Assembly: GCA_036822015.1 (NCBI GenBank)
Contig: DAISIL010000002.1
Coordinates: 11,268 to 75,267, forward strand
Length of the DNA: 64,000 nucleotides
Reading direction: 5' to 3'
DNA from: Bernardetiaceae bacterium
GTDB taxonomy: Bacteria; Bacteroidota; Bacteroidia; Cytophagales; Bernardetiaceae
The translations under genes and the position numbers were made by a program. Below the pieces are notes generated by a model. The model saw only the letters and a list, made by a program, of their open reading frames with translations. It was not told where the DNA came from and made no database searches. This document shows, one piece after another, positions 1,683-55,589 of the stretch. The first letter of the stretch is position 1; each line of letters begins with the position of its first letter.

Positions 1683-1714
1683 GATGTCCGTTTAGATGCC
1701 ATCGTAAAGCCAAT

Positions 1715-12390: not shown

Positions 12391-12420
12391 GGCATCAAAA
12401 AGATTTGATGCCTATTTCTC
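12391..12420 (+). terminator. Putative intrinsic terminator (9-bp stem GGCATCAAA/TTTGATGCC, 4-nt loop, T-rich tail)
   Basis: ggcatcaaa-aaga-tttgatgcc followed by tatttctcttc, immediately after the stop at 12390. Confidence 0.4.
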
Positions 12421-12539
12421 TTCTCCTATCCTAAAAACTATTTTTCTTCAAAGGAAAGGAAAATACCTATTGCCACCTAGCCCAAGTCGATCAAGGGCAA
12501 TAAAGCCTCGGCTAATCGGTCTTTTTGCTCGACAAAAAA

Positions 12540-30743: not shown

Positions 30744-30794
30744 CCTTTGGCGAAGTTCTTGCGTAAGGGAAAGTGTATCAAAAACACTAAGCCC

Positions 30795-33242
30795 ATGTCC
30801 GATTCCAACCGCGAGCGCGATCTCGTCCTGGCTCCCAACGAGTACGCCTTCATCTCTGACCAAACCAAAGGCAACATCAACGTCTATGTGGGGCCCTACA
30901 AAACCAGCCTAGCCAACACCGACAAGCCCGTTGCGTTCGATGACCAAAGCAAGCGTTTCTTGCGCTGCTCCCTCGATGAATCCACGCAGACCTTTACCGT
31001 AGCCCCCGAGGGCTGGTATATCATCCTCAAAAACCCACCCAAGCACGGCGATCAACCCAAAAACGGCACCAACAACAGCCTAGCCGAGCTCAACGTAGGC
31101 CGTAAGATCAACATCCCGGGACCGAAGCACTTTGCGCTCTGGCCAGGGCAGATGGTGCGCGTCGTGAGAGGGCATCATTTGCGCTCCAACCAATACCTGG
31201 TCGTTCGGGTCTATGACGAGGAAGAAGCCCGCCAAAACTGGGGCAAGGCCGTCATCAAGACCAAAAACGAAGAAAAAAACGATCAGCCCCTGACAGCGGA
31301 AGAAATCCCCGACTTAACCATGGGCAAGACCTTGATTATTAAAGGTGATGCTGTTTCGTTTTACATTCCCCCGACGGGTGTGGAGGTCGTCCGAGAGACC
31401 AACGGGGAGTACGTCCGGGAGGCCGTTACGCTCGAGCGGCTCGAGTACTGCATCCTTCTGGAGGAGGACGGCAACAAGCGGTTCATTCAGGGGCCGGCCG
31501 TCGTTTTTCCCAAACCCACGGAGGAGTTTGTGCAGCGCAACGGCTCCCGTAAGTTTTTGTCCATTGAGCTAAACGAGATGAGTGGCTTGTATATCAAGGT
31601 GATCGCTCCCTACACCGAGGACGGCAAGACCTACAAAGAAGGCGACGAGTTGTTTATCACCGGCAAAGAACAGATGATCTATTACCCGCGCCCCGAACAC
31701 GCAATCATCAAGTATGGCAAGCGCGAAAAACACTTTGCCGTAGCCATCCCCGACGGCGAAGGACGCTACTACCTCAATCGAAAGACGGGCAAGGTAGCCC
31801 TCCAGCGCGGCCCGGCCATGTTTCTGCCCGACCCACGGGCGTTTGTTTTGGTGAGGCGCATCCTCGAAGAGAAGCAGGTGCAGTTGTGGTTTCCGGGCAA
31901 CGAAGAAGCCCTCCGCTACAACAAAGCCCTGCAACAGATCGCCAAAAGCCCCCAAGAAAAATACGTCGCCGCACAGGAGGTCGATCAATCTCCCAAAATG
32001 GCCGTTGGGGCAGCACCCATGCCAGAGGTGCGCAAACGCGAGAAACCCTCCAAAGAGGTAGCCAGTGAGGAGTTTGAGCGCGGCGAAAGCTATACCCCTC
32101 CCCGAACGGTTACTCTGGACAACAAATACGACGGTGCCGTAACGATCAATGTCTGGACGGGATACGCCATCCTGGTCGTGAGCAAGACCGGCAAACGCAA
32201 GGTCATCACGGGGCCGCACACCTACCTGCTCGAGTACGACGAGACTCTCGAAGCCATGACGCTCTCCACGGGAACACCCAAGACAGAAGAAAACCCACTC
32301 CGAACGGTCTATTTGCGCGTTCTTCACAACCGAATTTCGGATGTCATCCTGGCCGAGTCGTCAGATTTTACGCAAGTTTCGCTGACGCTTTCGTATCGGG
32401 TCAATTTTGAGGGGGAAGCGGAGAAGTGGTTTAATGTTGAAAATTTTGTTAAATTCTTGACCGATCATCTCCGTTCCTTTGTCCGTAATGTGGTCAAGAA
32501 GCATACGATCATGGATTTTTATGCCAAAGGCGTGGATATTTTGCGGGATGCCATTTTGGGTGTTTCCGAAGGAGGCAAACGTCCCGGGCGGCTTTTTGAG
32601 GAAAACGGTATGCGCATCTACGATGTAGAGGTTTTGAATGTCCACCTGACCGACAAGAGCATTGAGCAGCTCCTGATCTCGGCCCAGCAGGAGGTCGTCA
32701 AGCAGACCTTGCGCATCGAAGCCGAAAAACGCAAGTTGGAGTTTACCCAATCGAGCGAGCAGATCGCGCAGCAGATCGCCAAAACCGAATCGGAGACCAA
32801 ACAAAACGCCTTCGGTCTCCAGATTCAGGAAGCCCAAAAGGAACTCGAACTCACCCTGGCACAACTCCAAAAGGTCATCCAGGAGGAGGAAGCCCAGCTC
32901 CAGGCACGCCTGGCCCAGCAGCAAAGCCTCAACGCCATCACGACGGCAGAGATCGAACGCCAACGCCAGCGCGAAGCCCAGACGCTCGAAACACAACAAG
33001 CCCAGCTCCAACAGCAGCTTACCTTGCTCAAAGGAGAAGTGGAGGCAACGGTCAGCAAAGCCCAGGCGATCTCCCCCGATTTGATCGCGGCCATGCAGGC
33101 TTTCTCCGACAAAGCCCTGGCCCAAAAGATGGCCGACTCGATGGCACCTTTGGCCATCCTGGGTGGGCGTAGCGTAGCCGATGTTTTTGCGCAGCTCCTC
33201 AAAGGCTCGGGCATCGAACACGTTTTGCAGCAAAACCCGTAA
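30795..33242 (+). CDS. Bacterial homolog of the major vault protein (MVP): N-terminal MVP repeat domains + SPFH-like shoulder domain + C-terminal cap-helix coiled coil
   Basis: N-terminus LVLAPNEYAFISDQTKGNINVYVGPYK parallels vertebrate MVP [27 protein letters not shown]. Shoulder region NGMRIYDVEVLNVHLTDKSIEQLLISAQQEVVKQTLRIEAE parallels [36 protein letters not shown]. Long Q/E/A-rich coiled coil follows. Length 816 aa versus ~860 aa for eukaryotic MVP. ATG at 30795 preferred; the tracked TTG is at 30747. Confidence 0.8.
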   Translation: MSDSNRERDLVLAPNEYAFISDQTKGNINVYVGPYKTSLANTDKPVAFDDQSKRFLRCSLDESTQTFTVAPEGWYIILKNPPKHGDQPKNGTNNSLAELNVGRKINIPGPKHFALWPGQMVRVVRGHHLRSNQYLVVRVYDEEEARQNWGKAVIKTKNEEKNDQPLTAEEIPDLTMGKTLIIKGDAVSFYIPPTGVEVVRETNGEYVREAVTLERLEYCILLEEDGNKRFIQGPAVVFPKPTEEFVQRNGSRKFLSIELNEMSGLYIKVIAPYTEDGKTYKEGDELFITGKEQMIYYPRPEHAIIKYGKREKHFAVAIPDGEGRYYLNRKTGKVALQRGPAMFLPDPRAFVLVRRILEEKQVQLWFPGNEEALRYNKALQQIAKSPQEKYVAAQEVDQSPKMAVGAAPMPEVRKREKPSKEVASEEFERGESYTPPRTVTLDNKYDGAVTINVWTGYAILVVSKTGKRKVITGPHTYLLEYDETLEAMTLSTGTPKTEENPLRTVYLRVLHNRISDVILAESSDFTQVSLTLSYRVNFEGEAEKWFNVENFVKFLTDHLRSFVRNVVKKHTIMDFYAKGVDILRDAILGVSEGGKRPGRLFEENGMRIYDVEVLNVHLTDKSIEQLLISAQQEVVKQTLRIEAEKRKLEFTQSSEQIAQQIAKTESETKQNAFGLQIQEAQKELELTLAQLQKVIQEEEAQLQARLAQQQSLNAITTAEIERQRQREAQTLETQQAQLQQQLTLLKGEVEATVSKAQAISPDLIAAMQAFSDKALAQKMADSMAPLAILGGRSVADVFAQLLKGSGIEHVLQQNP

Positions 33243-40070: not shown

Positions 40071-40772
40071 TTATCCCATCGCGGCCGCAATCGTGGCTAG
40101 GCTTACTTTGGCGGCCTGGGCGTTGAGGGCCGCCTGGGCGCAGCTTTCAAGGGTAGCCCCTGTTGTCAGGACATCATCCACGATCAGGAGGTGTTTATCG
40201 GCAACCAAATCTGGCTTGGGCACAACAAACAGCCCTTGTGTGGTGGCAAAGCGGTGCAGGCGATCTTTTTTGGTTTGGCTTTCGAGGTGTGCCGTACGTA
40301 GGAGCAGATCGGGCATCCAGGGGATGCCGAGCCGCTCGGATAGCCCCTGGGCGAAGCCATCGCTTTGGTTATAGCCCCTGATTTTGCGCTTGGTCGGGTG
40401 GAGTGGCACGGGAGCGATAAGGTCTATGGATTGGGGTAAATCTGTGGTAGCCAATACATTTCCATACCATTGCCCGAGTAGGAGCGCGATCTCGGGATGA
40501 TTGTTGTACTTGAGTTGGTGGAGTAAATGTTGTACATTGGTTTTGCGCCGAAAGTAGAGGTACGATTGCGCCCGCCAGATAGGAACACGCCCCACGAAAC
40601 GCTGCCAGATTTCGTTTTCGGGGTGTGTGTGGTGATCCGTAACGGGCAGAGTCAGTCGGCAGGTAGTACAGATCAGGGCTTCATTGCGCTCGATGCCTGC
40701 CTCGCAAGAGAGGCAAAAGGCAGGAAACAGCAGATGGACAAAATCGTTGAGCCAGGTTTGCGACCAGTTCAT
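40071..40772 (-). CDS. ComF-family protein (phosphoribosyltransferase-domain, ComFC-like)
   Basis: N-terminal zinc-finger-like CLSCEA...CTTC. C-terminal PRTase motif LLIVDDVLTTGATL. Confidence 0.6.
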   Translation of the reverse strand: MNWSQTWLNDFVHLLFPAFCLSCEAGIERNEALICTTCRLTLPVTDHHTHPENEIWQRFVGRVPIWRAQSYLYFRRKTNVQHLLHQLKYNNHPEIALLLGQWYGNVLATTDLPQSIDLIAPVPLHPTKRKIRGYNQSDGFAQGLSERLGIPWMPDLLLRTAHLESQTKKDRLHRFATTQGLFVVPKPDLVADKHLLIVDDVLTTGATLESCAQAALNAQAAKVSLATIAAAMG

Positions 40773-40830: not shown

Positions 40831-41769
40831 ATGGAGCAGATTCTGATTTCTGTGGTCAGTCCCGTGTATCGTGCCGAGCAGATCATAGATTTGCTGGTAC
40901 AGCGCATCAGCACCGAACTCGAACAGATCACGCCACACTTCGAGATCATCCTGGTAGAGGACGGCAGCCCTGACGGCTCCTGGCAAAAAATCGCCGAAAA
41001 CTGCCAACGCGATCCGCGCGTTAAGGGCATCAAGTTAAGCCGAAATTTTGGGCAGCATTATGCCATTACGGCGGGTCTGACCGCAGCCCGAGGGGAGATA
41101 ACCATCCTGATGGACTGTGATTTACAGGATGATCCGGCGCACATTCATCGCTTGCTTGCCGAGCAGCAAAAGGGCTACGAAATTGTATTTACGAAACGGA
41201 TCAAGCGTAAGCACTCTTTTTTTAAGGCAATTACGGCAAAGATATACAACGCTTTGTTTTTATTGTTTTCCGATAAGAAATATGACATTAACGTAGGTTC
41301 GCTGGTGCTATTTACCAAGAAAGTACGACAGCATTTTGTGCGCATCAAAGACAAAGATCGTTTGTACATTCAAATTTTGAAATGGTTGGGTTTTGCTCAC
41401 ACCTACATCTATGTAGAGCATCGCGAAAGAGCCGAAGGTGTATCTACCTACTCCTTTTTGAAGCTCCTAAAAATTGCCGTTCAGGGTTGGACATCTCATT
41501 CGGATAAACTGCTCCGTTTGTCCATCTATCTGGGATTTTTCTTATCCTTTCTGTCTTTTTTGGGGATATTCTTGATCGTAACGCTTTATTTTTGGCAGGG
41601 ATTTCAGTCAGGGTGGGCTAGCCTGGCAGTCCTGAACTTATTTTCTACGGGAATTATTCTGATCTGTATTGGCATTGCGGGTTTGTATATCGGTAAGACT
41701 TTTGAGCAGTCAAAGCATAAGCCTTTGTTTATCATAGATGAAGTATTAAATACAAAAATAGATGACTAA
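40831..41769 (+). CDS. GT2-family polyprenyl-phosphate sugar transferase (GtrB/ArnC/DPM1-like) with two C-terminal TM helices
   Basis: ISVVSPVYRAEQ...IILVEDGSPDGS...LMDCDLQDDP are the GT2 DXD-region motifs. C-terminal hydrophobic pair LSIYLGFFLSFLSFLGIFLIV and ILICIGIAGLYIG. Confidence 0.75.
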   Translation: MEQILISVVSPVYRAEQIIDLLVQRISTELEQITPHFEIILVEDGSPDGSWQKIAENCQRDPRVKGIKLSRNFGQHYAITAGLTAARGEITILMDCDLQDDPAHIHRLLAEQQKGYEIVFTKRIKRKHSFFKAITAKIYNALFLLFSDKKYDINVGSLVLFTKKVRQHFVRIKDKDRLYIQILKWLGFAHTYIYVEHRERAEGVSTYSFLKLLKIAVQGWTSHSDKLLRLSIYLGFFLSFLSFLGIFLIVTLYFWQGFQSGWASLAVLNLFSTGIILICIGIAGLYIGKTFEQSKHKPLFIIDEVLNTKIDD

Positions 41770-42454
41770 AAAAATAATTATTACACAGTCTAATTACATT
41801 CCTTGGAAGGGCTATTTTGATGCCATCCAGTACGTCGATGAAGTAATTCTTTATGATGATATGCAATACACCAAACGCGACTGGCGCAACCGCAACCAAA
41901 TCAAGACTCCACAAGGATTGCTTTGGTTGAGTATTCCAGTAGCGGTGAAGGGGAAATACTTTCAAGCCATCCAGGATACACAGGTGAGCGATCTCGGATG
42001 GGCCAGCAAGCACTGGAAAACGATCCAAGCCAATTACGCCAAAGCAAAATTTTTTAAAGATTATCAAGACATCTTCGAGGATTTATACTTAGATTGCCGA
42101 GAAAGCTATTTGAGCCAAGTCAATTTGCGTTTTATTCTGGGTATCAACAAGATGTTGGGCATCACAACACCGATACGCTTCTCGTCAGATTTTGTACTTG
42201 TTGAGGGCAAAACAGAACGTCTCGTAGATTTGTGCAAGCGGGTAGATGCCACCGATTACTACACCGGTAGTGCCGCCCAAAACTACATGGACGAATCCCT
42301 CTTTACGCAAGAAAACATTCGGGTACATTACTGGGACTACGCTGGCTATCCCGAGTACGAACAGCTATACCCACCTTTTGCGCATAATGTGTCTATCATT
42401 GATTTGATCTTGAACCAAGGAGAAAACAGCAGAAATTTTATGAAGTATTTGTAG
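41762..42454 (+). CDS. WbqC-family protein (LPS/O-antigen biosynthesis-associated, function unknown)
   Basis: IITQSNYIPWKGYFDAIQYVDEVILYDDMQYTKRDWRNRNQI is the characteristic WbqC N-terminus. Low GC. Overlaps the upstream gene by 8 nt. Confidence 0.6.
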   Translation: MTKKIIITQSNYIPWKGYFDAIQYVDEVILYDDMQYTKRDWRNRNQIKTPQGLLWLSIPVAVKGKYFQAIQDTQVSDLGWASKHWKTIQANYAKAKFFKDYQDIFEDLYLDCRESYLSQVNLRFILGINKMLGITTPIRFSSDFVLVEGKTERLVDLCKRVDATDYYTGSAAQNYMDESLFTQENIRVHYWDYAGYPEYEQLYPPFAHNVSIIDLILNQGENSRNFMKYL

Positions 42455-42458
42455 ATGT

Positions 42459-43091
42459 ATGGAAAAGCAACAAATCATCCGATCAGTAGCCGACTATTAC
42501 ACGGAAAAGCTCGCAGAACACGGCCCTACGCCAAGAGGGGTCGATTGGAACTCGGCAGATTCCCAGGAGCTTCGTTTTCGGCAACTCTTACAAGTGATCT
42601 CTGATGCTACTTCAACGACCTCTATCCTGGATTATGGCTGTGGCTTTGGTGCTATGTTTTCATTTATAGAGCAACACTTATCGAAAAACATACGCTTTTT
42701 TGGGTATGATATTTCCAAAAATATGATTCAGCAGGCAGAAAAACTTTATGGGGATCGGACGAATGCCATTTGGCTATCCGAGTTGAAAAATCAGGAAAAG
42801 ATGGATTATCTCGTATCGAGTGGGATTTTTAACGTTCGTCTGCAACACCAAAACACGGATTGGAAAGCCTACATTCTCGATGTTTTGCACCAATTTGACC
42901 AGTTGAGTACCAAAGGATTTGCATTTAATATGCTGACTGCCTATTCAGATAAGCCGTATATGAAGGATTATTTGTATTATGCTGATCCTATGTTTTTCTT
43001 TGATTACTGTAAGCAAAATTTTTCTCCTTATGTAGCCTTACTTCACGATTATCCACTTTATGAATTTACAATTTTAGTAAGAAAACAATAA
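42459..43091 (+). CDS. SAM-dependent methyltransferase (class I)
   Basis: ILDYGCGFGAM is the SAM-binding motif I. Low GC. Confidence 0.55.
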   Translation: MEKQQIIRSVADYYTEKLAEHGPTPRGVDWNSADSQELRFRQLLQVISDATSTTSILDYGCGFGAMFSFIEQHLSKNIRFFGYDISKNMIQQAEKLYGDRTNAIWLSELKNQEKMDYLVSSGIFNVRLQHQNTDWKAYILDVLHQFDQLSTKGFAFNMLTAYSDKPYMKDYLYYADPMFFFDYCKQNFSPYVALLHDYPLYEFTILVRKQ

Positions 43092-43858
43092 TGAATATCA
43101 TTGCTTGCATCGATCATCAGATAGGCTATAGGTTAGCCGTCCAGTTGATTCAACTACAAAAATTAGGGGAAATAACTAACTTATGGTTATACACCAACCC
43201 AAGGCCAGCAGAAGCATTCTGGGATGATTGTTTTTACTTAAAAGAAGTATATACTTTTGAAAATATATTTGCTTTTAATAACGATCAAGAAATAATAAAG
43301 CATACAAAAAATTATGTTATTGATTATATATTTTTGTTGTCATGGAAGCATTTGGTGTCAAAGGAACTTATAGAACATTCGCAAAAAGGTTGTATCAATC
43401 TTCATTACAGCCTTTTGCCAAAATTTCGCGGGGTTTATCCTGTTAATTGGGCGATTATCAACGGAGAAAAAGAGACAGGTCTTACTTTTCACTTTGTGAA
43501 TCAAGGCATAGATGCAGGTGATATTATTTTGCAAAGAAAACTAAGTATATCACTTACCGAAACAGCTAAGTGCCTACTCGAGCGATTAGATGATTTAGCT
43601 GAACAGGCATTTAGGGAGTTGTGGGATATGATAAAGTCATACCAGACCTTACCACGAAGACCACAAACCATTGTTGCGGATTACTATTCAAGAAAACGAT
43701 TCTTGCAAATCTGTCAGCTATCTTTAACAGAAACTGTTACTGGTGGGGAGTTGCTAAACCTCTTACGTGGAACAACCTTCGGTGCGCAATCAAATCTCTA
43801 TTTTCTCGACGAAAAACAGCAGAAAGTGTATATCACGATTCAATTTCACCCAGAATAA
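43091..43858 (+). CDS. Formyltransferase (sugar N-formyltransferase-like, Formyl_trans_N family)
   Basis: INLHYSLLPKFRGVYPVNWAIINGEKETGLTFHFVNQGIDAGDII contains the formyltransferase catalytic motif (H-x-SLLP-x-x-RG ... N ... D). Too short to be Fmt/PurN with their extra domains, and sits in sugar-modification context. Confidence 0.7.
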   Translation: MNIIACIDHQIGYRLAVQLIQLQKLGEITNLWLYTNPRPAEAFWDDCFYLKEVYTFENIFAFNNDQEIIKHTKNYVIDYIFLLSWKHLVSKELIEHSQKGCINLHYSLLPKFRGVYPVNWAIINGEKETGLTFHFVNQGIDAGDIILQRKLSISLTETAKCLLERLDDLAEQAFRELWDMIKSYQTLPRRPQTIVADYYSRKRFLQICQLSLTETVTGGELLNLLRGTTFGAQSNLYFLDEKQQKVYITIQFHPE

Positions 43859-44691
43859 TGGCTGATACGATGCAATACATCGACAACATCAAGTGCTACG
43901 CCCCAGAGCTAGCCCATGCCAACGCAGATTACCCTGTCGAGGCTTTTGAGGAACTGTATAAAATTGAAACAGAAAATTTCTGGTTTTTTTCCCGTAATGC
44001 CGTTTTGCAGCATCTGTTCAAAAAATATCTCGGCACAGATCAGAAACATATCCTCGAGATCGGCTGTGGGACGGGCTTTGTACTGCATGGCTTATCCCAG
44101 AAGTTTCCCAACTATGTGCTTTCAGGATCGGAGATACACGTAGCTGGGATACATTTTGCTCAAAAACGCTTGCCCGAGGTTGAGTTTGTGCAGTTGGATG
44201 CTACCCGGATGCCATTTACGGATACTTTTGATGCCGTGGGCGCTTTTGATGTATTGGAGCATATTGAAGAAGATGTTCAGGTAATGAAAGAAGTTCAGAA
44301 GTCTTTAAAAAAAGAGGGTTTATTTTTTATTTCCGTTCCTCAATATCAGTGGATGTGGAGCATCGCCGATGATGTTGCCTATCACAAACGCCGCTACACG
44401 CGCCAGATGCTCGGTACACGCCTCCGCGAAGCGGGCTTTGAGGTGCTATACATGGGGTCTTTTGTGGCCACGCTTTTCCCGCTCATGTATGCCTCACGTC
44501 TGCTCAAGCGCAGGCACACAGGTAAGCTCACCGAAGCCGAGGCAAGGGCTTTATCCATGCAAGAATTGCAACTTTCACCAACACTCAATGCTATTTTGCG
44601 CCAACTGATGCGCATAGATGAGGGGTTGATTAAGAAAAATGTATCTTTACCCTTTGGTGGCTCGTTGCTTGCCGTAGCCCGAAAAAAATAA
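43858..44691 (+). CDS. Class I SAM-dependent methyltransferase
   Basis: ILEIGCGTGF motif I, and FDAVGAFDVLEHI motif. ATG at 43858 overlaps the upstream stop (TAATG). Confidence 0.65.
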   Translation: MADTMQYIDNIKCYAPELAHANADYPVEAFEELYKIETENFWFFSRNAVLQHLFKKYLGTDQKHILEIGCGTGFVLHGLSQKFPNYVLSGSEIHVAGIHFAQKRLPEVEFVQLDATRMPFTDTFDAVGAFDVLEHIEEDVQVMKEVQKSLKKEGLFFISVPQYQWMWSIADDVAYHKRRYTRQMLGTRLREAGFEVLYMGSFVATLFPLMYASRLLKRRHTGKLTEAEARALSMQELQLSPTLNAILRQLMRIDEGLIKKNVSLPFGGSLLAVARKK

Positions 44692-44712
44692 AAAACTATT
44701 GATCGACTGCTT

Positions 44713-45846
44713 ATGAACGTTCCCTTTAATCTCCCCTACATGACCGGACGGGAGTCCGAGTATATCCAGGCGGCCGTCGCCTCCGGCAAAATTTCGGGGG
44801 ACGGGGTATTTACCCACAAGTGTCATGCGTTTTTTGAGCAGCGTTACAGTTTTCCCAAGTGCCTCCTGACGACCTCCTGCACCGATGCGCTCGAGATGTG
44901 CGCCCTGCTCCTGGATATCAAGTCCGGCGACGAGGTCATTGCCCCGAGTTATACCTTTGTCAGTACCGTTAATGCTTTCGTTCTACGGGGTGCAAAAATT
45001 GTCTTTGCTGATAGCGAAGCCAACACGCCCAATATGGATATTTCAAAAATTGAATCTTTGATTACGCCGCGTACGAAGGTAATCGTTGTTGTGCATTATG
45101 CCGGTGTGGCTTGTGATATGGATGCCGTGATGGCACTGGCTGAGCGGTATGGTTTGTTTGTGGTGGAGGATGCAGCCCAGGCAGTAGATAGTTTTTACAA
45201 GGATCGTCCGTTGGGGAGCATAGGACATCTGGCGGCTTTTTCGTTCCACGAAACCAAAAATATCATCAGCGGAGAAGGTGGAATGCTGGTCGTCAATGAT
45301 GAACAATTCGCCAAACGCGCCGAAATTATCCGCGAAAAAGGGACAAATCGCAGTGCTTTTTTTCGGGGAGAGGTGGACAAATACGGCTGGGTGGATGTAG
45401 GTTCTTCCTTTTTGCCTTCGGATATTATTGCTGCTTTTCTTTTTGCACAACTCGAAAATCTTGCTGATATTCAGGCATGTAGAAAGCAAATCTGGCAGCG
45501 TTATTACGAGGCGTTCAGACCTTTGGCAGAGCAGGGACACCTCCGTTTGCCGCACTTACCCGACTACGCCCACAACAACGGGCATCTGTTCTTTGTCCTC
45601 TGCCGAGACCTCGAAGAACGGACGGCACTCATACAGCACCTCAAGGCAGCGGGCATCTGGGCCGTTTTTCATTATCTGGCTTTGCATCAGTCGCCGTTTT
45701 ACAAAGACCAGCATGACGGCCGGACGCTGCCCTACTGTGAGCAGTACGCGGACGGATTGGTACGGCTGCCACTTTTTTATCAAATCACGGAAGCGCAGCA
45801 GTCCAGGGTCATAGATGCTGTCTATGAATTTTTTGATAAAAAATGA
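44713..45846 (+). CDS. DegT/DnrJ/EryC1-family sugar aminotransferase, WecE-like (dTDP-4-keto-6-deoxyhexose 4-aminotransferase)
   Basis: Near end-to-end motif identity with E. coli WecE: PSYTFVSTVNAFVLRGAKIVF, VHYAGVACDMD, FVVEDAAQA, FSFHETKN, REKGTNRS-FFRG-VDKY-W-D-GSS, VFHY-LH. Confidence 0.85.
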   Translation: MNVPFNLPYMTGRESEYIQAAVASGKISGDGVFTHKCHAFFEQRYSFPKCLLTTSCTDALEMCALLLDIKSGDEVIAPSYTFVSTVNAFVLRGAKIVFADSEANTPNMDISKIESLITPRTKVIVVVHYAGVACDMDAVMALAERYGLFVVEDAAQAVDSFYKDRPLGSIGHLAAFSFHETKNIISGEGGMLVVNDEQFAKRAEIIREKGTNRSAFFRGEVDKYGWVDVGSSFLPSDIIAAFLFAQLENLADIQACRKQIWQRYYEAFRPLAEQGHLRLPHLPDYAHNNGHLFFVLCRDLEERTALIQHLKAAGIWAVFHYLALHQSPFYKDQHDGRTLPYCEQYADGLVRLPLFYQITEAQQSRVIDAVYEFFDKK

Positions 45847-47777
45847 TACTCATGGCGTTTTTAGAAAATTATTTCTTTTTTGTTGTAACTTTATCTTTCT
45901 TTTATTTTATTGGAGCTTTGCCCGCCTGGCTTTACCGCCGATTTATTCCGCACCAGATGGCGGATATTTTTACGGCGCTTGTTCTGGGGCAGGGGATTTT
46001 GGTTACGGGCTATGCCTTGTTCAAGACCGAAGGACAGACGATGTTTGTGTTGGCTGTGCCGTTTTTGTGGTGGGCATATCGCGTATGGCTTCTCCAGGAA
46101 CGCCCATTTAGCGGCTCCTCTAGCCGATGGACGATTCCTTTGCTGCTTTTGTTTTCTTTGGTTGTTTATGGCTGGGAGGCTTTCTTTTTTCTTGATGAAG
46201 CAGGGGCAGGACAGATAGTTTTTACAGATTTAAATTTTTATGCGCGTGTAGCCAATGCCATGCGTCTGGTCGGCTTGGAAAGCATCAAAGCACAGTTTTA
46301 TTTCCTAGATCCGACGCTTAGCCCGGGCATTGACTTGTATCACTTTTACGAACTATGGCTAACTGCTTTATCCATAGATATTTGGAATCTGCCCCCAAAC
46401 TATGCTTATCTCTTGGTGGCCATGCCGAGCATTTATTTTATTTCGTTGCTGGGGCTTTACGCGCTCCTGGAGTGCTATGCTGCGGAGGTGAAGCCCTGGC
46501 TATTTGCTGGCTTGGCGATTTTGTTGTTGTTCGTAAAAGGTATTCATTTTGATTTTTATGAATCCAACCGATTGATGCAATATTCCACGTACCTGTTGTA
46601 CGAACAACTGCTCTGGAAAAAAGTATCCGTTTATCAGCCCTTGATACTACTGGCCATGATTTGGTTCAGCCGTCGCAATTTCAAGCAAGGGTTGATATTG
46701 CTTTTTTTATTACCGATCTATGCCATCACCACTTTTCCAGCAATTTCGGGCGCGGCCCTGATCTTGTGGTTGGCTTTGTGGTACTGGCGACGGCTATCCC
46801 TCCGGCAGATGCTCTGGGGCATAGGAGCGGTAGGTTTGTATCTGTTTGTTTTTTTGCTTTGGTATCAAGAACTAAAAACAGTATCCTCCCTTACGCCTAA
46901 AACAGCACTAGATACACTTTTCCAATTTGATTTGGGGACACTCAAAACGAAAGTTTCATTTTTTGTCGGGACGCTCATCAAAACCGTACTACTTTATCTG
47001 CCTTTTTTCCTCATTCCCTTACTTTGGGTTCGACCGTATGCACTCGTGAAGGCACATAAGGAGACTTGGCTTTGGTTGGTTGGGCTGTTTGCGAGTGGAT
47101 TGCTTACCTGGGCGATACTCTACGGTATGGATCAGGTCCGGCAGCTACATCTACACACGGCCGCCATTGCCTGGATGCTTGCTGCGGCCCTGACTGCCAT
47201 GCACGTCTGGGAAAGCCAACGTGGAAGATGGGCTTTTTTGGTAGTCTTTGTAGGTTTAGCTATGTTTAATGTTTATGATAGTTTCCAAAAACAACGTTAC
47301 TTTATTCAGTCAGAGACGCTTAGATACACTACAGATTATCTCCTACAAATCAAAACCAGCCTGCCTCAAAACCGACTTTGTTATGGGGTGTCGATCACTG
47401 CTCCGGAAGAGTATCCTCGGCTCAAGCAGGGCTATACACCACACATGATGCAGCGCGGCGAGTATCTGAGCAACTTTTACACCCAAACGATGACCTATCA
47501 GATGGATAACTTTCTGGAGGCAATGAAATATGTACCCAACTACCGCACCCAGGATTTGCTTTATTTGCCTTTTTATCGCTTCGTTGAACGCCAAAAAGCG
47601 GCTGGTACTTTTCTGGACATCCCGAGCAGCCAGGCGGACTTTTTTTTGACGCATAAGTTTGACTATCTCATTGCTTCTCCCGAGGCTGTTGTCCCGAAAG
47701 CTATCCGCCAAAGGGCTAAGCGCGTCCTGACCGATCCCAAAAGTGGTGAACGTTTTTTTATCTTTGTCCCGCTATGA
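45843..47777 (+). CDS. Large polytopic membrane protein, candidate GT-C-type glycosyltransferase (ArnT/GtrC/PMT-like) - uncharacterised
   Basis: About 12 hydrophobic helices over the first ~470 aa and a ~170-aa soluble C-terminal domain. Sits at the end of a GtrB/ArnC-like GT2 operon. No motif-level confirmation is possible by eye. Confidence 0.5.
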   Translation: MILMAFLENYFFFVVTLSFFYFIGALPAWLYRRFIPHQMADIFTALVLGQGILVTGYALFKTEGQTMFVLAVPFLWWAYRVWLLQERPFSGSSSRWTIPLLLLFSLVVYGWEAFFFLDEAGAGQIVFTDLNFYARVANAMRLVGLESIKAQFYFLDPTLSPGIDLYHFYELWLTALSIDIWNLPPNYAYLLVAMPSIYFISLLGLYALLECYAAEVKPWLFAGLAILLLFVKGIHFDFYESNRLMQYSTYLLYEQLLWKKVSVYQPLILLAMIWFSRRNFKQGLILLFLLPIYAITTFPAISGAALILWLALWYWRRLSLRQMLWGIGAVGLYLFVFLLWYQELKTVSSLTPKTALDTLFQFDLGTLKTKVSFFVGTLIKTVLLYLPFFLIPLLWVRPYALVKAHKETWLWLVGLFASGLLTWAILYGMDQVRQLHLHTAAIAWMLAAALTAMHVWESQRGRWAFLVVFVGLAMFNVYDSFQKQRYFIQSETLRYTTDYLLQIKTSLPQNRLCYGVSITAPEEYPRLKQGYTPHMMQRGEYLSNFYTQTMTYQMDNFLEAMKYVPNYRTQDLLYLPFYRFVERQKAAGTFLDIPSSQADFFLTHKFDYLIASPEAVVPKAIRQRAKRVLTDPKSGERFFIFVPL

Positions 47778-48208
47778 AATCTATCGCCATCATCAACGGG
47801 CCCAACCTCAACCTGCTGGGCATCCGCGAGCCGGAGCTATACGGCAAACGCGGTTTTTTACATTTTTTAGAAGAACTCCAAGCGGAGTTTGGACAGGTTG
47901 CCATCGACTACTTTCAGTCCAATATCGAGGGAGAACTGATCGACCATTTGCATCGGGTGGGCTTTACGGCAGATGCCATCTTGTTCAATGCCGGTGGATA
48001 TACGCATACCTCGGTTGCTTTGCGGGATGCGGTTTCGGCGATTTCGGCGCCGGTCTTGGAGGTTCACCTGACACAGATTTACGCTCGGGAAACGTTCCGC
48101 CATCGGAGCTTTCTCTCGCCCGTCTGTGTGGGAAGTATCTCTGGGCTGGGGCTAGAGGGCTATCGCCTGGGGCTCCTGTATTTCGTTCGGCAATGGGAAA
48201 CGCCTTGA
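47774..48208 (+). CDS. aroQ: Type II 3-dehydroquinate dehydratase
   Basis: IAIINGPNLNLLGIREPELYG N-terminus and HLHRVG...NAGGYTHTS motifs. Overlaps the upstream gene by 4 nt. Confidence 0.9.
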   Translation: MKSIAIINGPNLNLLGIREPELYGKRGFLHFLEELQAEFGQVAIDYFQSNIEGELIDHLHRVGFTADAILFNAGGYTHTSVALRDAVSAISAPVLEVHLTQIYARETFRHRSFLSPVCVGSISGLGLEGYRLGLLYFVRQWETP

Positions 48209-48210
48209 GC

Positions 48211-49065
48211 TTAGGGGCGCATATTTTCCTTGATCGCTTGAAGGCCGTCCACGAAAGAAACTTCGGGTTTCCATTGCAGATATTCCTCTATACGATTGAT
48301 TGATAGGATATTAGATGGTACGTCAAATTGCCTTCCAGGCTTGTAGCGCACCTCCAACGGACGGCCAACCACCTGCCCGATCATCGTGGCAACCTCCCGA
48401 AGGCTATACCCACGTCCGCTACCTACATTAAAAATCTTCTCGGGACTGTGGCGCACAATGGCCGCCCCGATGGCCCGGCAGACATCGTCCACATAGACGT
48501 AATCGCGGATCGTCTTGCCATCGCCCCATATCTCGATGGGCTGATGGTTAAGGGCTTTTTGCATCCAAATCCCGATAACACCTTGTCCTTTATGCAAATT
48601 TTGTCCGATGCCGTAGGCGTTCGAGACCCGCAAGATGACGTAATCAAGCCCGTACAGGTGGTGGTACAGGTGCAGGTATTTCTCTGCGGTGAGCTTCGAT
48701 AGTCCATAGCCGGAGATGGGAAAAGTGGGAGCTGTCTCTGAAATCGGAACTTGTCGGGGAATCCCATAAACTGTACCTCCCGAGGAGATAAAAATAACTT
48801 TTTTTAGGGTAGGGTTTTTACGGGCGGCTTCTAGTAGGTGCAGCCATCCCAGCACGTTGGTTTCCAGGTCAGCGATGGGATCGGCGGTTGCATTTTTCGG
48901 GACGGTACTCCAGGCCAGATGTACCAGCACTTCCTGATCGACTAGCTGGTCAGTCGTTGAGAGATTCTGGCGATCATAGAGGCGAATTGTATGCCCTTGC
49001 CGACGAAGCAGCCCTTGTAGATGCTGCCCAATGAAGCCCGAGCCACCCGTCAGTAGCACGCGCAT
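48211..49065 (-). CDS. NAD-dependent epimerase/dehydratase family protein (SDR)
   Basis: MRVLLTGGSGFIGQHL Rossmann motif, catalytic SGYGLSK (YxxxK). Internal ATG at 49065 preferred, sharing 1 nt with the lgt stop. Confidence 0.8.
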   Translation of the reverse strand: MRVLLTGGSGFIGQHLQGLLRRQGHTIRLYDRQNLSTTDQLVDQEVLVHLAWSTVPKNATADPIADLETNVLGWLHLLEAARKNPTLKKVIFISSGGTVYGIPRQVPISETAPTFPISGYGLSKLTAEKYLHLYHHLYGLDYVILRVSNAYGIGQNLHKGQGVIGIWMQKALNHQPIEIWGDGKTIRDYVYVDDVCRAIGAAIVRHSPEKIFNVGSGRGYSLREVATMIGQVVGRPLEVRYKPGRQFDVPSNILSINRIEEYLQWKPEVSFVDGLQAIKENMRP

Positions 49066-49865
49066 CAGTTGGGGTATTTGCTTGATAAAGCCTGACGCAG
49101 GAGCCATGCCCCTACCAGGATCATGGGAATACTCAATAGCTGGCCCATGTTGAGGGCCAGGGATTGCTCCCATGCTTCCTGATTTTCTTTGAAAAACTCT
49201 ATCAAAAATCGAAAAGAGAAGACCAGTATGAGGTACAAGCCCGTGAGCAACCCGTGTGGGGTTTTTGCGCCGTATTTGTTGTAGGTCAAGAGCAGAATAA
49301 CGAACGTAAGGAGGTTGGTCAGGGATTCATAAACTTGCGTGGGATGGCGCGGAAAATCCTCCCCCAGGCGCGTGAAGATTACGCCCCAGTCTGATCCTGT
49401 GGCTCTTCCGATGATTTCTGAGTTCATCAAGTTCCCGAAACGGATAAAAGCCCCCCCAAGGGCCGCCGTGATGGCGATGCGATCAGCTACCCAGAAATAG
49501 GGCTGATCCGGGTGCTTGCGGGCATAAATGTAAAGAGCAGTGAGCATGGCAATAGCCGCGCCGTGGCTGGCCAGACCGCCTTCCCATATTTTCAAAATTC
49601 GGATGGGATTAGAAAAATAATAGACCGGATCATAAAAAATACAATGTCCTAGCCGCGCCCCAATCACGACGGATAGCACCATAAAGAGCAGCAGCTCGTC
49701 TAAGTCCTTGAGGTTTTTGTTCTCCCGCGTGTAGATGCGCACCATGATATAGTTGCCCACGACAAAGCCCAGCGCGAAGAGCAGGCCGTACCAGCGCATG
49801 GCAAAGTTACCGATGCGAAAAATTTCGGGATCTGGCCCCCACGTGATCGCCGAGAGTAGTTCCAT
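49065..49865 (-). CDS. lgt: Prolipoprotein diacylglyceryl transferase
   Basis: FRIGNFAMRWYGLLFALGFVVG N-terminus, and the GGLASHGAAIA and FGNLMNSEI motifs typical of Lgt. Confidence 0.9.
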   Translation of the reverse strand: MELLSAITWGPDPEIFRIGNFAMRWYGLLFALGFVVGNYIMVRIYTRENKNLKDLDELLLFMVLSVVIGARLGHCIFYDPVYYFSNPIRILKIWEGGLASHGAAIAMLTALYIYARKHPDQPYFWVADRIAITAALGGAFIRFGNLMNSEIIGRATGSDWGVIFTRLGEDFPRHPTQVYESLTNLLTFVILLLTYNKYGAKTPHGLLTGLYLILVFSFRFLIEFFKENQEAWEQSLALNMGQLLSIPMILVGAWLLRQALSSKYPN

Positions 49866-52259: not shown

Positions 52260-53339
52260 GTGATGAAAAGTTGTTTTTCACTGATTGTCCTTTTTTTGCT
52301 GACTGCCCTGGCTCTGGCCCAACCGCCAGCTCATCACGTGGCGTTCCAGGCACAGTACGGCTTCATCATTCCGCACTCCCAAAGCATCCGTGATGTATCG
52401 GGGAGCAACCCCTGGGGCTTGAAAGTCGATTGGAGTTGGCATTTTAGGAGTGAGGCTGCCTGGCAGTATTGCCAGTGTTTTCCTCGGCTGGGTGTGTCGT
52501 TGGAGTATATCAATTTCGGTAACCCGCAGGTGCTGGGCAATGCCTATCCGGTTTCTTTTTGGGTTGAGCCTGTCTTTGGGGCAGAGCGTCGTTTGAGTGG
52601 GGCTTTGCGTTTTGGTTTTGGCTTGGCTCCCCTTGATCGCATCTATGATCCGATCACGAATCCGGAAAATCTTTTTTATAGCGCACGGGTGAGCTTTTTG
52701 CTGTTGGTCAATGCCAACCTCCGCTACCGCCTTTCGCCGCGCTGGGCTTTGCAGTTGAGCAGCAACTACAACCACATCTCCAACGGCGGTCTCCGCGAAC
52801 CCAACAAGGGCATCAACTACCCCACCCTTAGTCTTGGGCTAGATTACAGCCTGCGTCCGCAGCCCTTTCCCACCTATCGTCCGACGGGTCGGGCTGTGGT
52901 TGCGGATTCGTTGCGGCAGCGTTGGCAGTTGAGCCTCATGGGTTCGGCACAAAATATCGGTGAACAGACGCGCTACCCGCTCCTGGGGCTGATGCTGCGT
53001 TATGGGCGGCGCGTCCGTCCGATGCACGGGCTAAGCGTAGGGGCCGAGTGGGTCTGGGATTTCTCCCTTCGGGAACGCCTGCGCCGTGATGATCCAACGA
53101 GTAGTGCAGCCTTTGCGCGGGGGGCTGTGCTGGTGGGGCATGAGTTGTGGCTCGGGCGCTTTGTCTTTACGCAAGACCTGGGCGTATATGTGTATGCCCC
53201 TACGCCGGCCCGCGATCCGGTGTATCAGCGTTTTGGATTGGATTTTTGGATCAACAGACGCTGGTCGGTGGGCATGAACCTCAAGACGCACCTCCACGTA
53301 GCTGATTTTCTGGACTTCCGCCTGGGCTTCTCCCTTTAA
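52260..53339 (+). CDS. Outer-membrane acyloxyacyl hydrolase family protein (PagL-like lipid A deacylase fold)
   Basis: Signal peptide, alternating amphipathic beta-strand pattern, and a HISNGG block reminiscent of the PagL His/Ser site. Confidence 0.45.
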   Translation: MMKSCFSLIVLFLLTALALAQPPAHHVAFQAQYGFIIPHSQSIRDVSGSNPWGLKVDWSWHFRSEAAWQYCQCFPRLGVSLEYINFGNPQVLGNAYPVSFWVEPVFGAERRLSGALRFGFGLAPLDRIYDPITNPENLFYSARVSFLLLVNANLRYRLSPRWALQLSSNYNHISNGGLREPNKGINYPTLSLGLDYSLRPQPFPTYRPTGRAVVADSLRQRWQLSLMGSAQNIGEQTRYPLLGLMLRYGRRVRPMHGLSVGAEWVWDFSLRERLRRDDPTSSAAFARGAVLVGHELWLGRFVFTQDLGVYVYAPTPARDPVYQRFGLDFWINRRWSVGMNLKTHLHVADFLDFRLGFSL

Positions 53340-53378: not shown

Positions 53379-55589
53379 TCAGACCCGCACGCCCAGTACC
53401 GTGATGTCGTCGCGCTGCTCGGTGTCTTGTTGGTGTTGTTTGAGGGTTTCTCGGATGATCTCTGCTTGTTTGGACAGGGGCAAGGGACAGATCAGGCGCA
53501 GGAGGTTCTCGAAGCGCATGGAGCCAAAGCGTTCTAGGTCGGGGTTACTTTGGTCGATGTATCCATCAGAAAGCAGATAGACGATACCGCCCTGGCGGAG
53601 GTCAAGTCTCTGGTTATGAAACATTTTGGTACTTCGTTTGCGCACCCGCCCACCGATGGAGTGCCGATCTCCCCGCAATTTTTTGGGGTTTTGTTGGGCT
53701 TGTCCACAATCGAGATAATAGATCGCCTGCTTGGCACCCGCAAAGACGACGCTGCGCCCCTCAAAGCGGCAGAGGCTGATGTCCATGCCGTCTCGGTTGC
53801 TGGTTGTGGTGGAGTGTAGCGTTTTTTTGATCTCTTGATCGAGGTGAGCCAGGATCATGGCCGGATCGTAGCAGCGCATCTGCTGGACGATTTCGTTGAG
53901 GAGCGTATGGGCGATCATGGACATAAACGCCCCCGGCACGCCATGCCCTGTGCAATCTACGACAGCCAAAAATCGGTAATCCTCCGTAGTATGTTCGGGA
54001 ATATCCGCTTGATCTACTTGGAGAAACCAGTAGAAATCACCCGAAACAATATCCTTCGGCAAGAAGAGCAAAAAACTTTCTGCAAAAGCCGCTTCGATGT
54101 CGGATAGGCGCGGGAGCAGCCCGTGCTGGATGTCCTGGGCATAGCGGATGCTATCGGTGATGTTGTTGTTCTGGCGGCGGTTTTCTGATAGGGTATTTTC
54201 GAGGATGACCTGCTGGGCTTGGAGGCGGTCTTTTTGGGCCTGGATTTCCTCGTTTTGTTGGTGGATGTATTGGTTCTTTTGGCGGAGCTTTTGGTTGGCT
54301 TCTTGCTTGATGTAATACCCTCGATAGATCAACCCGATCAAGACAAAGCTCATCAAAGTAGCCACGATGAGGAAGTTACGCTGGCGTTGCTGCCGCTGGA
54401 TTTCGTTTTCTTGCTGTTGGAGTTGTTGTTGCTGCCACTGGATTTGTTGTCGGTGTTCTTTGATCTGGTAGCGGCTTTCGATCTCACGGGTGTAGCGGAT
54501 TTGTTCCAGATTGAAGAGGCTGTCCTTGATCTGAACAAACTGCCGATACACGGCTAGGGCTTGTGCCGTCGCGCCTATTTTTTCGTAAGTCCTGACCATG
54601 ACTTCGAGTACGTCTTTTTGCAGATTGACATCACCGATCTGACGACTGATACGCTGGGCTTCGGTGATTTCGCGGAGGGCTTTGGTGTAGTATTCGTTGC
54701 GGAGTTTGCCCAGGCTGCCGCCCATGCTAAGGTAGGCATCGGCGCGTTTGGTTTTGGCTAGGGCGATACCGCGCGGCTGATCGAGTTGTTGGTAGATGTC
54801 GATGGCTTGTTTGAGCAAGCCGAGGCCTTGGGCGTACTGCCCCTTAGCGATGTGGATGTTGGCGATGTTGATGTAAGAGGTCGCGATGCCGGAGCGGTTG
54901 TTTAGTTTTTCTTTGATGTCCAGGGATTGGTAGTGCCAATGGAGTGCCGAGTCGAGTTGGTGCATTTTTTCGTGGATCAGACCGATGTTGTTGTACGAGC
55001 TGGCCAGGGCGCGGGTCTGTCCGGTTTGTTGGCGCAAGGCTACGGCCCGATAAAAGTAAGTCAAGGCTCTGGGGTAGTCCTCCTGGATCGCATGAATGAT
55101 CCCGATGTTGTTGATGGTCTGGGCGATGCCGGGGATATTTTGGAGGGAATCATAGATGTCAAGGGCTTGTTGGTAGTACTGGAGCGTTTGTCCGAGGTCG
55201 CCTTGAAGTTCGTAGATGATCCCGACGTTGTTGGCCCATCGGGCTTGCATCTCGGGGGTGTTGAGGTGTTGTCGGGCTTGCTCAAAGTAATCGAGGGCGG
55301 CGATATAGTCGCTTTTCCCACGAAAGATTACCCCGATTTGGAGGAGAGCTTCGGCCGTACCGTTGGTGTGTTGCAGCGACTGGGAGAGCGTCAAGGCGCT
55401 GTTGGCGTAAGCCAGGGCGGTATCGGGGGTGTTGTCGCGGAAGGCATCGGAGAGCAGCAGGAGTAATCTTACTTTGGTGGTATCTTTTTGGGGATGCTGG
55501 CTTAGGGCTACCCGCAGGCTATCGGCGTAGGGATGCGACCAAAGCCCCACGATGGGAAAAAGCCATAAAAAAACGATCCAACGGAGCAT
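53379..55589 (-). CDS. Sensor serine phosphatase: signal peptide + multiple TPR repeats + TM helix + coiled coil + PP2C/SpoIIE
   Basis: Repeated TPR units (ALxxxGxIxxxxGDLxxALxYY...). TM helix FLIVATLMSFVLIGLIY. Q-rich coiled coil. PP2C motif KDIVSGDFYW...VVDCTGHGVPGAFMS. Confidence 0.8.
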   Translation of the reverse strand: MLRWIVFLWLFPIVGLWSHPYADSLRVALSQHPQKDTTKVRLLLLLSDAFRDNTPDTALAYANSALTLSQSLQHTNGTAEALLQIGVIFRGKSDYIAALDYFEQARQHLNTPEMQARWANNVGIIYELQGDLGQTLQYYQQALDIYDSLQNIPGIAQTINNIGIIHAIQEDYPRALTYFYRAVALRQQTGQTRALASSYNNIGLIHEKMHQLDSALHWHYQSLDIKEKLNNRSGIATSYINIANIHIAKGQYAQGLGLLKQAIDIYQQLDQPRGIALAKTKRADAYLSMGGSLGKLRNEYYTKALREITEAQRISRQIGDVNLQKDVLEVMVRTYEKIGATAQALAVYRQFVQIKDSLFNLEQIRYTREIESRYQIKEHRQQIQWQQQQLQQQENEIQRQQRQRNFLIVATLMSFVLIGLIYRGYYIKQEANQKLRQKNQYIHQQNEEIQAQKDRLQAQQVILENTLSENRRQNNNITDSIRYAQDIQHGLLPRLSDIEAAFAESFLLFLPKDIVSGDFYWFLQVDQADIPEHTTEDYRFLAVVDCTGHGVPGAFMSMIAHTLLNEIVQQMRCYDPAMILAHLDQEIKKTLHSTTTSNRDGMDISLCRFEGRSVVFAGAKQAIYYLDCGQAQQNPKKLRGDRHSIGGRVRKRSTKMFHNQRLDLRQGGIVYLLSDGYIDQSNPDLERFGSMRFENLLRLICPLPLSKQAEIIRETLKQHQQDTEQRDDITVLGVRV

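Follow-up and report, generated by a model that had tools for sequence, protein, structure and literature searches.

A predicted Gtr-like extracytoplasmic glycosylation operon with an unannotated GT-C-fold membrane protein in a Bernardetiaceae genome

Within a 64-kb window (the whole stretch of DNA analysed here) from a metagenome-assembled genome (MAG) of the Bernardetiaceae (Cytophagales, Bacteroidota), positions 40831-48208 carry eight + strand open reading frames (ORFs) packed with overlaps or tiny gaps. We consider it fairly probable that the genes at 40831-47777 make up an operon for extracytoplasmic glycosylation of the three-component (Gtr-like) type, which would pass an N-formylated amino sugar via a lipid carrier to an acceptor in the envelope. 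Computation establishes the identities of the genes, the architecture of a family 2 glycosyltransferase (GT2), the GT-C fold of a 644-aa membrane protein and a conserved synteny. An earlier reading of the bare sequence (hereafter the original prediction) had described eight overlapping or nearly abutting genes, and all eight ORFs lie on the + strand at the coordinates it gave:

40831..41769, +, GT2, GtrB/ArnC-type polyprenyl-phosphate glycosyltransferase; 312 aa, two C-terminal transmembrane (TM) helices
41762..42454, +, WbqC-family protein; 230 aa, PF08889
42459..43091, +, MT1, class I S-adenosylmethionine (SAM) methyltransferase; 210 aa
43091..43858, +, VioF-type nucleotide-sugar N-formyltransferase; 255 aa, PF00551 + PF18216
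43858..44691, +, MT2, class I SAM methyltransferase; 277 aa
44713..45846, +, WecE-type dTDP-4-keto-6-deoxy-D-glucose 4-aminotransferase; 377 aa
45843..47777, +, multi-pass membrane protein with a C-terminal alpha/beta domain, GT-C fold; 644 aa
47774..48208, +, aroQ, type II 3-dehydroquinate dehydratase; 144 aa, PF01220

A polyprenyl-phosphate glycosyltransferase homologue encoded with a GT-C-fold protein

The first gene product combines the two features by which polyprenyl-phosphate glycosyltransferases are recognized, a GT2 catalytic domain (PF00535 in a Pfam scan, with a DxD-type motif, DCDLQDD, at residue 95) and a C-terminal TM hairpin (segments 232-250 and 265-283). Among PDB sequences, GtrB (5ekp) aligned with residues 4-305, TM hairpin included (E=9e-47), and the ArnC structures 9hwj, 9bhc and 8vxh aligned end to end with residues 6-307 (E~1e-37), which bears out the prediction of a GT2 of GtrB/ArnC type that ends in two TM helices. 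The NCBIfam models for PgfS (191 bits) and ArnC (PRK10714, 153 bits with an ArnC cutoff of 529) matched over the full length. Judged by sequence, this protein is a homologue of the polyprenyl-phosphate glycosyltransferase class and, because both scores fall under the NCBIfam equivalog cutoffs, would be an orthologue of neither PgfS nor ArnC.

The 644-aa protein matched no Pfam or NCBIfam model and no PDB sequence at E<=10, and a word-indexed homologue search with it returned only itself. An exhaustive HMMER scan of 1.84 billion representatives gave 543 relatives at E<=1e-3, of which 282 also passed E<=1e-10 (representatives at 50% identity), nearly all of them full length (~620-680 aa) and with 22-36% identity. 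Scanning 75 family members revealed no consistently matched Pfam family; those members that carried a source name, among the ones checked, were all labelled 'hypothetical protein' and the others were nameless. Relatives were aligned as sets of 104 (A1) and 75 (A3) sequences, and a motif-restricted alignment (A4) served for the locus scan described below. D129, E146, H167 and W172 are invariant in A3; D129 is conserved in at least 90% of A1, and G144, Y166 and K260 are nearly invariant. The family motifs are PF.D..FY..IS..L..TG.EN and YHYFELWLNA, and the C-terminal domain has conserved FY.FV..QK, SQ.DFI and D..SGERF motifs.

An AF2 model made from the single sequence had a pLDDT of 43.7, and the model made with the 104-sequence alignment a pLDDT of 91.8 and a pTM of 0.94. 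In Foldseek searches of the PDB, 15 structures matched at probability 1.00 and all were GT-C proteins (ALG12, DPY19, AftA, AglB, STT3, PglB, ALG9, ArnT); the next matches were transporters, at probability <=0.13. Two fold searches agreed on GT-C, the likeness to ArnT being at the level of the fold only. The predicted model thus has the multi-pass TM core with GT-C architecture that characterizes the superfamily, and indicates a GT-C fold without a close solved or modelled relative. No significant model match was found to known GT-C sequence families (PMT_2/GT83, PMT/GT39, STT3/GT66, YfhO and others in Pfam/NCBIfam), and identity to members of the GT-C_A class (AftA GT85, ArnT GT83, PMT GT39, PglB GT66) is <12%; the motifs PF.D..FY..IS, G.EN and YHYFELWLNA also differ from those of known GT-C families. 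The suggestion that this protein is GT-C-like therefore gained from a confident model with GT-C matches only and no transporter, while the comparison with Pfam and GT-C families placed it in the superfamily by fold and in no sequence family. Neither of the two computational outcomes that the original prediction had named as contrary to it, a membrane protein unrelated to GT-C and a GT2 without polyprenol-phosphate transferase features, was seen.

The conserved loop at residues 117-184 follows about four helices and is net acidic (8 D/E, 3 K/R). Applying the positive-inside rule, this loop (with D129) and the C-terminal domain would face the periplasm, and D129, E146 and H167 are likely catalytic or phosphate-binding residues. 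The protein is accordingly presented here as a predicted periplasmic transferase.

A different role would follow if the operon served conventional cytoplasmic polysaccharide assembly, with the GT2 an ordinary Leloir enzyme acting on an undecaprenyl diphosphate (Und-PP)-linked repeat and the 644-aa protein a polymerase, ligase or transporter. Two related loci fit such an arrangement: in Salinivirga (L051) the same sugar cassette lies in a Wzx/GT56-type cluster, and in L006 a member of the 644-aa family closes a multi-GT2 polysaccharide cluster. The GT2 of the window, however, aligns end to end with GtrB and ArnC, TM hairpin included; Wzx, Wzy, an initiating phosphoglycosyltransferase and further glycosyltransferases are all missing from the window; and the fold searches that return GT-Cs list no Wzy, WaaL or RodA. 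On these fold-search results we rejected the idea that the 644-aa protein is a transporter, Wzy or WaaL, and we regard cytoplasmic assembly as very improbable.

Genes for an N-formylated 4-amino sugar

The sugar-making genes define the donor that a Gtr-like system would use. The aminotransferase exceeded both WecE equivalog cutoffs of NCBIfam (NF008687, 580 bits, cutoff 375; TIGR02379, 537 bits, cutoff 435), carries the pyridoxal phosphate-binding lysine K182 in SFHETK182N, and matched E. coli WecE (4piw) at E=2.7e-131 as against 8e-56 for ArnB (1mdo). Its assignment as a WecE-type 4-aminotransferase was thereby upheld, and the NCBIfam grading favours the galacto product Fuc4N (4-amino-4,6-dideoxygalactose), as far as sequence models can tell.

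The formyltransferase scored above the cutoffs of PF00551 (Formyl_trans_N, 106 bits) and of the PF18216 dimerization domain (44.7 bits), and has the Asn-His-Asp triad (N103-x-H105 and D141) together with H105-YSLLPKFRG. These features agree with the predicted sugar N-formyltransferase and its HxSLLPxxRG...N...D signature, and mark the enzyme as VioF-type, a class that does not fix the exact substrate. PDB matches that reach through the C-terminal domain include the formyltransferases for dTDP-Qui4N (Qui4N, 4-amino-4,6-dideoxyglucose) 6v33, VioF 4yfv (aligned with residues 28-252) and Rv3404c 4pzu; WbkC and ArnA matched the N-domain only. The NCBIfam dTDP-Qui4N formyltransferase equivalog was matched at 96 bits, with a cutoff of 238.

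WbqC and the two SAM methyltransferases were also correctly foreseen. WbqC (PF08889, E=4e-76) has no relative among PDB sequences, and our literature searches found no functional study of it; from its occurrence in other loci it appears to move together with the MT1-formyltransferase cassette. MT1 has Methyltransf_12/25/31 domains and marginal PDB matches only, and is presumed to methylate the sugar. MT2 has Methyltransf_11/25/31/23/12 domains and nothing informative among PDB sequences; MT2-like genes (E~1e-22 to 1e-24) occur in L006, L009 and L014, close to the GT2, the GT-C gene or both.

Conserved neighbourhood in related loci

A genome scan with the YHYFELWL motif gave 41 loci, to which contig look-ups of representatives added nine (L001-L050). 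The 41 scanned loci are all from Bacteroidota except two doubtful MAG contigs, and the taxa cover Cytophagales, Chitinophagales, Flavobacteriales and Bacteroidia, including Bernardetia sp. OM2101 and Hymenobacter arizonensis (L050), a cultured organism whose match to the 644-aa family is a weak fragment. Neighbours were counted in 47 distinct loci. A GT2 matching that of the window over at least 270 residues lies within 10 kb in 16 of the 47, a DegT aminotransferase is present in 22/47, both in 14/47, and an aminotransferase of WecE grade in 8/47. An unbiased clustering of neighbouring ORFs, with 46 loci holding a family ORF, gave the following neighbour families:

DegT aminotransferase, 23/46 loci
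GtrB-like GT2, 21/46 loci
Short-chain dehydrogenase/reductase (SDR), 4,6-dehydratase-like, 13/46 loci
Hexapeptide acyltransferase, 9/46 loci
Other GT2, 7/46 loci
PMT_2-like GT-C, 5/46 loci
AsnB-like, 5/46 loci
MT2-like, 4/46 loci
FdtA, 4/46 loci
WbqC, 3/46 loci
Ugd, 3/46 loci

Several loci have an arrangement close to that of the window:

L037 (Segetibacter MAG), operon of GT2, formyltransferase, WecE and GT-C
L042, operon of GT2, formyltransferase, WecE and GT-C
L041, GT2, GNAT and WecE, with the GT-C two genes on
L001, WbqC, hexapeptide acyltransferase, GT2, EamA flippase-like (98 aa), GT-C and WecE, with two other genes interspersed
L005, WecE, hexapeptide acyltransferase and GT2, adjoining the GT-C gene

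The formyltransferases of L037 and L042 consist of Formyl_trans_N and Formyl_trans_C and are of another type than that of the window. Thus the N-acyltransferase is swapped among four non-orthologous types (VioF-type formyl, Fmt/ArnA-type formyl, GNAT and hexapeptide), and gene content points to a conserved core of a GtrB-like GT2, a 4-aminotransferase, an interchangeable N-acyltransferase and a GT-C of the 644-aa family. The Gtr-like reading is supported because loci of this family recur with a GtrB-like GT2, a DegT/WecE aminotransferase and an N-acyltransferase.

The genes that make the sugar also occur with other machinery. In L051, WbqC, MT1-like, formyltransferase and DegT genes are followed by a WecF-like GT56 and Wzx, which is a cytoplasmic route. 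In L052, the WbqC, MT1-like and formyltransferase genes of the cassette stand with a GT2, an EamA gene and two large membrane proteins outside the 644-aa family. The MT1-like gene is directly 5' of the formyltransferase in both. Because the same genes recur in these two contexts, the WbqC/MT1-like/formyltransferase/aminotransferase cassette would be a portable sugar module that fits either a cytoplasmic or a GT2-type route. The membrane proteins of L052, a metagenome contig that does not look like Bacteroidota, are 530 and 552 aa long (4177-5769 and 9820-11478), one has a DEGFLWYG motif, and both are possibly members of further unmodelled GT-C families.

A second GT-C family was also seen in these neighbourhoods. 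A ~500-aa PMT_2-like protein lies directly beside the GT-C gene in L004 (118-1593, -), L005 (3831-5354, +) and L007 (3281-4852, +), these proteins matching each other at E<=1e-134, and hhalign found no relationship between them and the 644-aa family (probability 0.4%). L041 has a separate PMT_2-match protein (549 aa, 11827-13476) and a second paralogue of the 644-aa family (13702-15474, E=9e-70). These pairs suggest that some systems have paired GT-Cs.

Such neighbours bear on the nature of the acceptor. The same machinery could serve an acceptor other than lipopolysaccharide (LPS), such as a protein-linked glycan (for instance the general O-glycan of Bacteroidota or the glycolipid anchor of type IX secretion system (T9SS) cargo), a capsule or a peptidoglycan-associated glycan. 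Genes of T9SS type lie near family members in two loci (SprB and Por_Secre_tail in L009; Por_Secre_tail between the aminotransferase and the GT-C in L041), and the recurrence of PMT_2-like GT-Cs as neighbours in five loci points the same way. Against this, the genes loosely surrounding the window operon include Lgt, PagL-like and OmpA-like genes, and nothing in the sequence specifies an acceptor. We judge a non-LPS acceptor unlikely, though worth keeping in mind.

Proposed pathway and comparison with known systems

Under the Gtr-like reading, dTDP-4-keto-6-deoxy-D-glucose would be made elsewhere by RmlA/RmlB, aminated at C4 by the WecE-type enzyme and N-formylated with N10-formyl-tetrahydrofolate by the VioF-type enzyme; WbqC, MT1 or MT2 might change the sugar further, for example by methylation. 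The GtrB/ArnC-type GT2 would then load the N-formyl sugar onto undecaprenyl phosphate (Und-P) at the cytoplasmic face, a flippase encoded outside the operon and window would flip the lipid-linked monosaccharide, and the 644-aa GT-C would transfer the sugar to the envelope acceptor. What we infer from the genes is the order in which the steps occur, together with the nucleotide of the donor, the carrier lipid, the topology and the acceptor. LPS (its O-chain, core or lipid A) is the most probable acceptor, although sequence alone fixes neither the acceptor nor the configuration of the sugar at C4.

The hallmarks of three-component systems are a glycosyltransferase of GT-C fold and a lipid-linked donor from a GtrB-type synthase (PMC11127046), and in the window a GT-C transferase is encoded with the synthase. 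Like the GtrA/GtrB/Gtr* systems of Shigella and Salmonella (PMC11127046), the operon would pair a GtrB-type GT2 with a TM hairpin, as maker of a polyprenyl-monophosphate sugar, with a GT-C as the final extracytoplasmic transferase. From locus to locus the GT-C varies far more than the GT2 and the aminotransferase do, a trait it shares with the serotype-specific Gtr* proteins. Unlike Gtr, it would use an N-formyl-4-amino-4,6-dideoxyhexose from a dTDP-sugar as donor in place of UDP-Glc, has the sugar-biosynthesis genes inside the operon, has no GtrA-type flippase, and encodes a GT-C unrelated in sequence to Gtr* proteins and absent from Pfam. The GtrB-GtrC-like logic of the original prediction was therefore supported by the GT2, the GT-C fold and the synteny, but not as regards a flippase.

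Several points weigh against the Gtr-like reading. A flippase of GtrA, ArnE/F or EamA type is absent from the operon and the 64-kb window, where neither a small multi-TM ORF nor a homologue of the EamA-type proteins from L001, L052 or L025 occurs; the dedicated flippase of such systems is thus lacking here, while L001, L052 and probably L025 have EamA-type genes. A check for rmlA and rmlB, suggested with the original prediction and run here on the 64-kb window, found neither. No dTDP-donor enzyme of GtrB/ArnC type surfaced, those met using UDP-sugars, although no search was aimed at this. The association of GT2 and aminotransferase extends to only about one-third to one-half of the family loci, the periplasmic placement of D129 and the C-terminal domain is a prediction from the positive-inside rule, and the roles given to WbqC, MT1 and MT2 in the pathway are putative.

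The other parallel that had been drawn was with the Arn pathway (PmrHFIJKLM) of lipid A modification. In a true Arn-like system formylation would be transient, the sugar would be deformylated on the carrier, and a cationic 4-amino sugar would be placed on a lipid A phosphate as a defence against cationic peptides. The gene logic does recall Arn: the formyltransferase, aminotransferase, GT2 and GT-C mirror ArnA(FT)-ArnB-ArnC-ArnT, ArnC is homologous to the GT2 over its full length, and a PagL-like lipid A deacylase gene lies 4 kb 3' of the operon. The components nevertheless differ. Neither Ugd, a decarboxylase, the ArnA dehydrogenase, ArnD (or another ArnD-type deacetylase/deformylase) nor ArnE/F was found in the operon or the 64-kb window; the aminotransferase is WecE and not ArnB (237 bits with the ArnB model, cutoff 631); the formyltransferase is a single-function protein of 255 aa and VioF-type (PF18216), not ArnA/Fmt-type; and the GT-C resembles neither ArnT (GT83) nor PMT_2 in sequence, so that the ArnB, ArnC and ArnT orthologues of an Arn system are missing. 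The sugar, moreover, would be a 6-deoxyhexose from a dTDP precursor (through WecE), whereas Arn uses a UDP-pentose. Because Ugd/ArnA dehydrogenase, ArnD and ArnE/F are lacking and the aminotransferase is WecE, the gene set does not indicate a cationic lipid A modification. In cognate operons, a GNAT or hexapeptide acetyltransferase stands in place of the formyltransferase, which implies a stable N-acyl product. We thus find a true Arn-like charge modification improbable, and the sugar of the Gtr-like pathway probably stays N-formylated and neutral, since there is no deformylase here and acetyltransferases replace the formyltransferase in relatives.

The predicted activated sugar belongs to the same class as those of the enterobacterial common antigen (ECA) WecE/WecD/WecF branch (dTDP-Fuc4NAc) and of VioA/VioF and Francisella WbtJ (dTDP-Qui4NFo). 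In ECA and the O-antigen systems, however, cytoplasmic Leloir glycosyltransferases act on Und-PP repeats, in contrast to the GtrB-type GT2 plus GT-C route proposed here. In our literature searches we came upon neither the Bacteroidota module nor delivery of a 4-formamido sugar via Und-P; Qui4NFm was documented only in the Leloir-built O-antigen of Francisella.

We tentatively propose, with some doubt, that the 644-aa protein founds a new GT-C family (~540 representatives at 50% identity, nearly confined to Bacteroidota, and unannotated in Pfam, NCBIfam and the sources searched) that uses polyprenyl-phosphate-linked N-acyl-4-amino-dideoxy sugars. In this organism the protein would act on Und-P-4-formamido-4,6-dideoxyhexose, which would be new as a lipid-linked donor; the family would be a Bacteroidota counterpart of ArnT/Gtr*, and N-acylation before lipid loading would be an obligatory rule of the module. 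Capping of the 4-amino group before carrier loading is so far known only from ArnA/ArnC, and a general requirement for it is suggested because the type of N-acyltransferase swaps while the GT2, aminotransferase and GT-C are retained. The glycosylation principle as such is already established. If true, the three-component paradigm would extend to N-acylated 4-amino-4,6-dideoxyhexose donors from dTDP-sugars; if confirmed, the proposal would give a function to a ~650-aa Bacteroidota membrane family (543 representatives) and add one more GT-C family. Little is known of the envelope glycans that environmental Bacteroidota (Cytophagales, Chitinophagales) make, and the operon yields gene-to-structure hypotheses for them.

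Operon structure, composition and flanks

The genes of the operon follow each other closely: GT2 and WbqC overlap by 8 nt, WbqC and MT1 are 4 nt apart, MT1 and the formyltransferase overlap by 1 nt, as do the formyltransferase and MT2 (the true MT2 ATG, 43858, lies on the formyltransferase stop), and a gap of 21 nt separates MT2 from the aminotransferase. The junctions of the 644-aa gene with the aminotransferase and with aroQ are each a 4-nt overlap (ATGA). A sigma-70 promoter and terminator scan gave no more than the shuffle expectation, and the Bacteroidetes-type pattern TTTG-N17-23-TAnnTTTG had no match 5' of the GT2. The NCBI model of the GT-C gene (MGF1533745.1, 619 aa) begins at ORF residue 26 and omits window positions 45843-45917. 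The N-terminal 25 residues of the 644-aa ORF are conserved in the family alignments, G24 being invariant in A1 and A3 and at least 90% conserved in a further alignment (A2); the longer model is the more likely, on sequence grounds, because this N-terminus is kept and its ATG, at 45843, lies over the stop of the aminotransferase gene.

The last gene of the cluster had been described as aroQ fused to the end of the operon. This was not borne out: aroQ (PF01220, E=2e-50) is a separate ORF with its own ATGA overlap with the GT-C stop, from which co-transcription with the GT-C gene is probable. No aroQ occurs in the 50 related loci L001-L050, and the window has further aromatic-pathway genes at scattered positions. 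We considered aroQ as a member of the glycosylation system and rejected it on its absence from all related loci and its flank-like GC content; by these comparisons it would be a housekeeping passenger outside the system.

Across 700-bp windows, GC content had a mean of 0.523 (sd 0.045) over the whole 64 kb, with a minimum of 0.327 at 42901, over the junction of MT1 and the formyltransferase. By gene, GC was 0.44 for the GT2, 0.42 for WbqC, 0.39 for MT1, 0.36 for the formyltransferase (0.33 at third codon positions; the lowest gene in the window), 0.47 for MT2, 0.50 for the aminotransferase, 0.46 for the 644-aa GT-C gene and 0.54 for aroQ, with flanks at 0.51-0.55. Thus the proposed low-GC block from WbqC to MT2 is real as a dip centred on MT1 and the formyltransferase, but MT2 is not markedly low. 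The best non-self homologue of the formyltransferase had 44% identity, and together with the low GC this is compatible with mosaic acquisition of an MT1-formyltransferase core. GC is also low (0.39-0.41) at window positions 1-1700, a stretch that has a gene for an HNH_2 endonuclease domain at 696-1682 and may be another foreign segment.

On the 5' side the operon is flanked by a divergent ComF-like gene (40071-40769, -) and on the 3' side by an lgt-SDR pair convergent to it. We examined the SDR (48211-49173, -) as the missing 4,6-dehydratase and set it aside: it has a GalE-like SSGGTVYG, lacks the TDE/TSE motif and is coupled to lgt, its probable start, M37 (49065), giving a 1-nt overlap with the lgt stop. 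Its identity to the SDRs found repeatedly as neighbours of the 644-aa family is 30%.

Envelope- or LPS-related genes (Lgt, PagL-like, OmpA-like) occur loosely around the operon. The product of one of them (52260-53339, +; 359 aa) has a PagL-type lipid A 3-O-deacylase domain (E=2e-11); the gene lies ~4 kb 3' of the operon, separated from it by unrelated DUF58, GldH and LuxR-type response regulator genes, and is a weak hint at lipid A remodelling nearby. The GldH gene agrees with the assignment of the MAG to Bernardetiaceae.

Other genes of the window

Elsewhere in the window, an 807-aa protein (25122-27545, +) has three tandem TIR domains (PF13676, E=2e-72) with a ThsB_TIR match, and may by this domain content be of defence or NADase type. 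An 831-aa protein (30747-33242, +) combines a Major Vault Protein (MVP) shoulder (PF11978, E=5e-29) with Vault_3 repeats; this bacterial MVP-like gene adjoins a LytTR response regulator. Three large sensors end in SpoIIE/PP2C phosphatase domains (4038-6200, -; 12540-16217, -; 53379-55589, -), their other modules being, in that order, 7TMR-DISM, Reg_prop/Y_Y_Y and TPR, and the density of such partner-switching-type genes is unusual.

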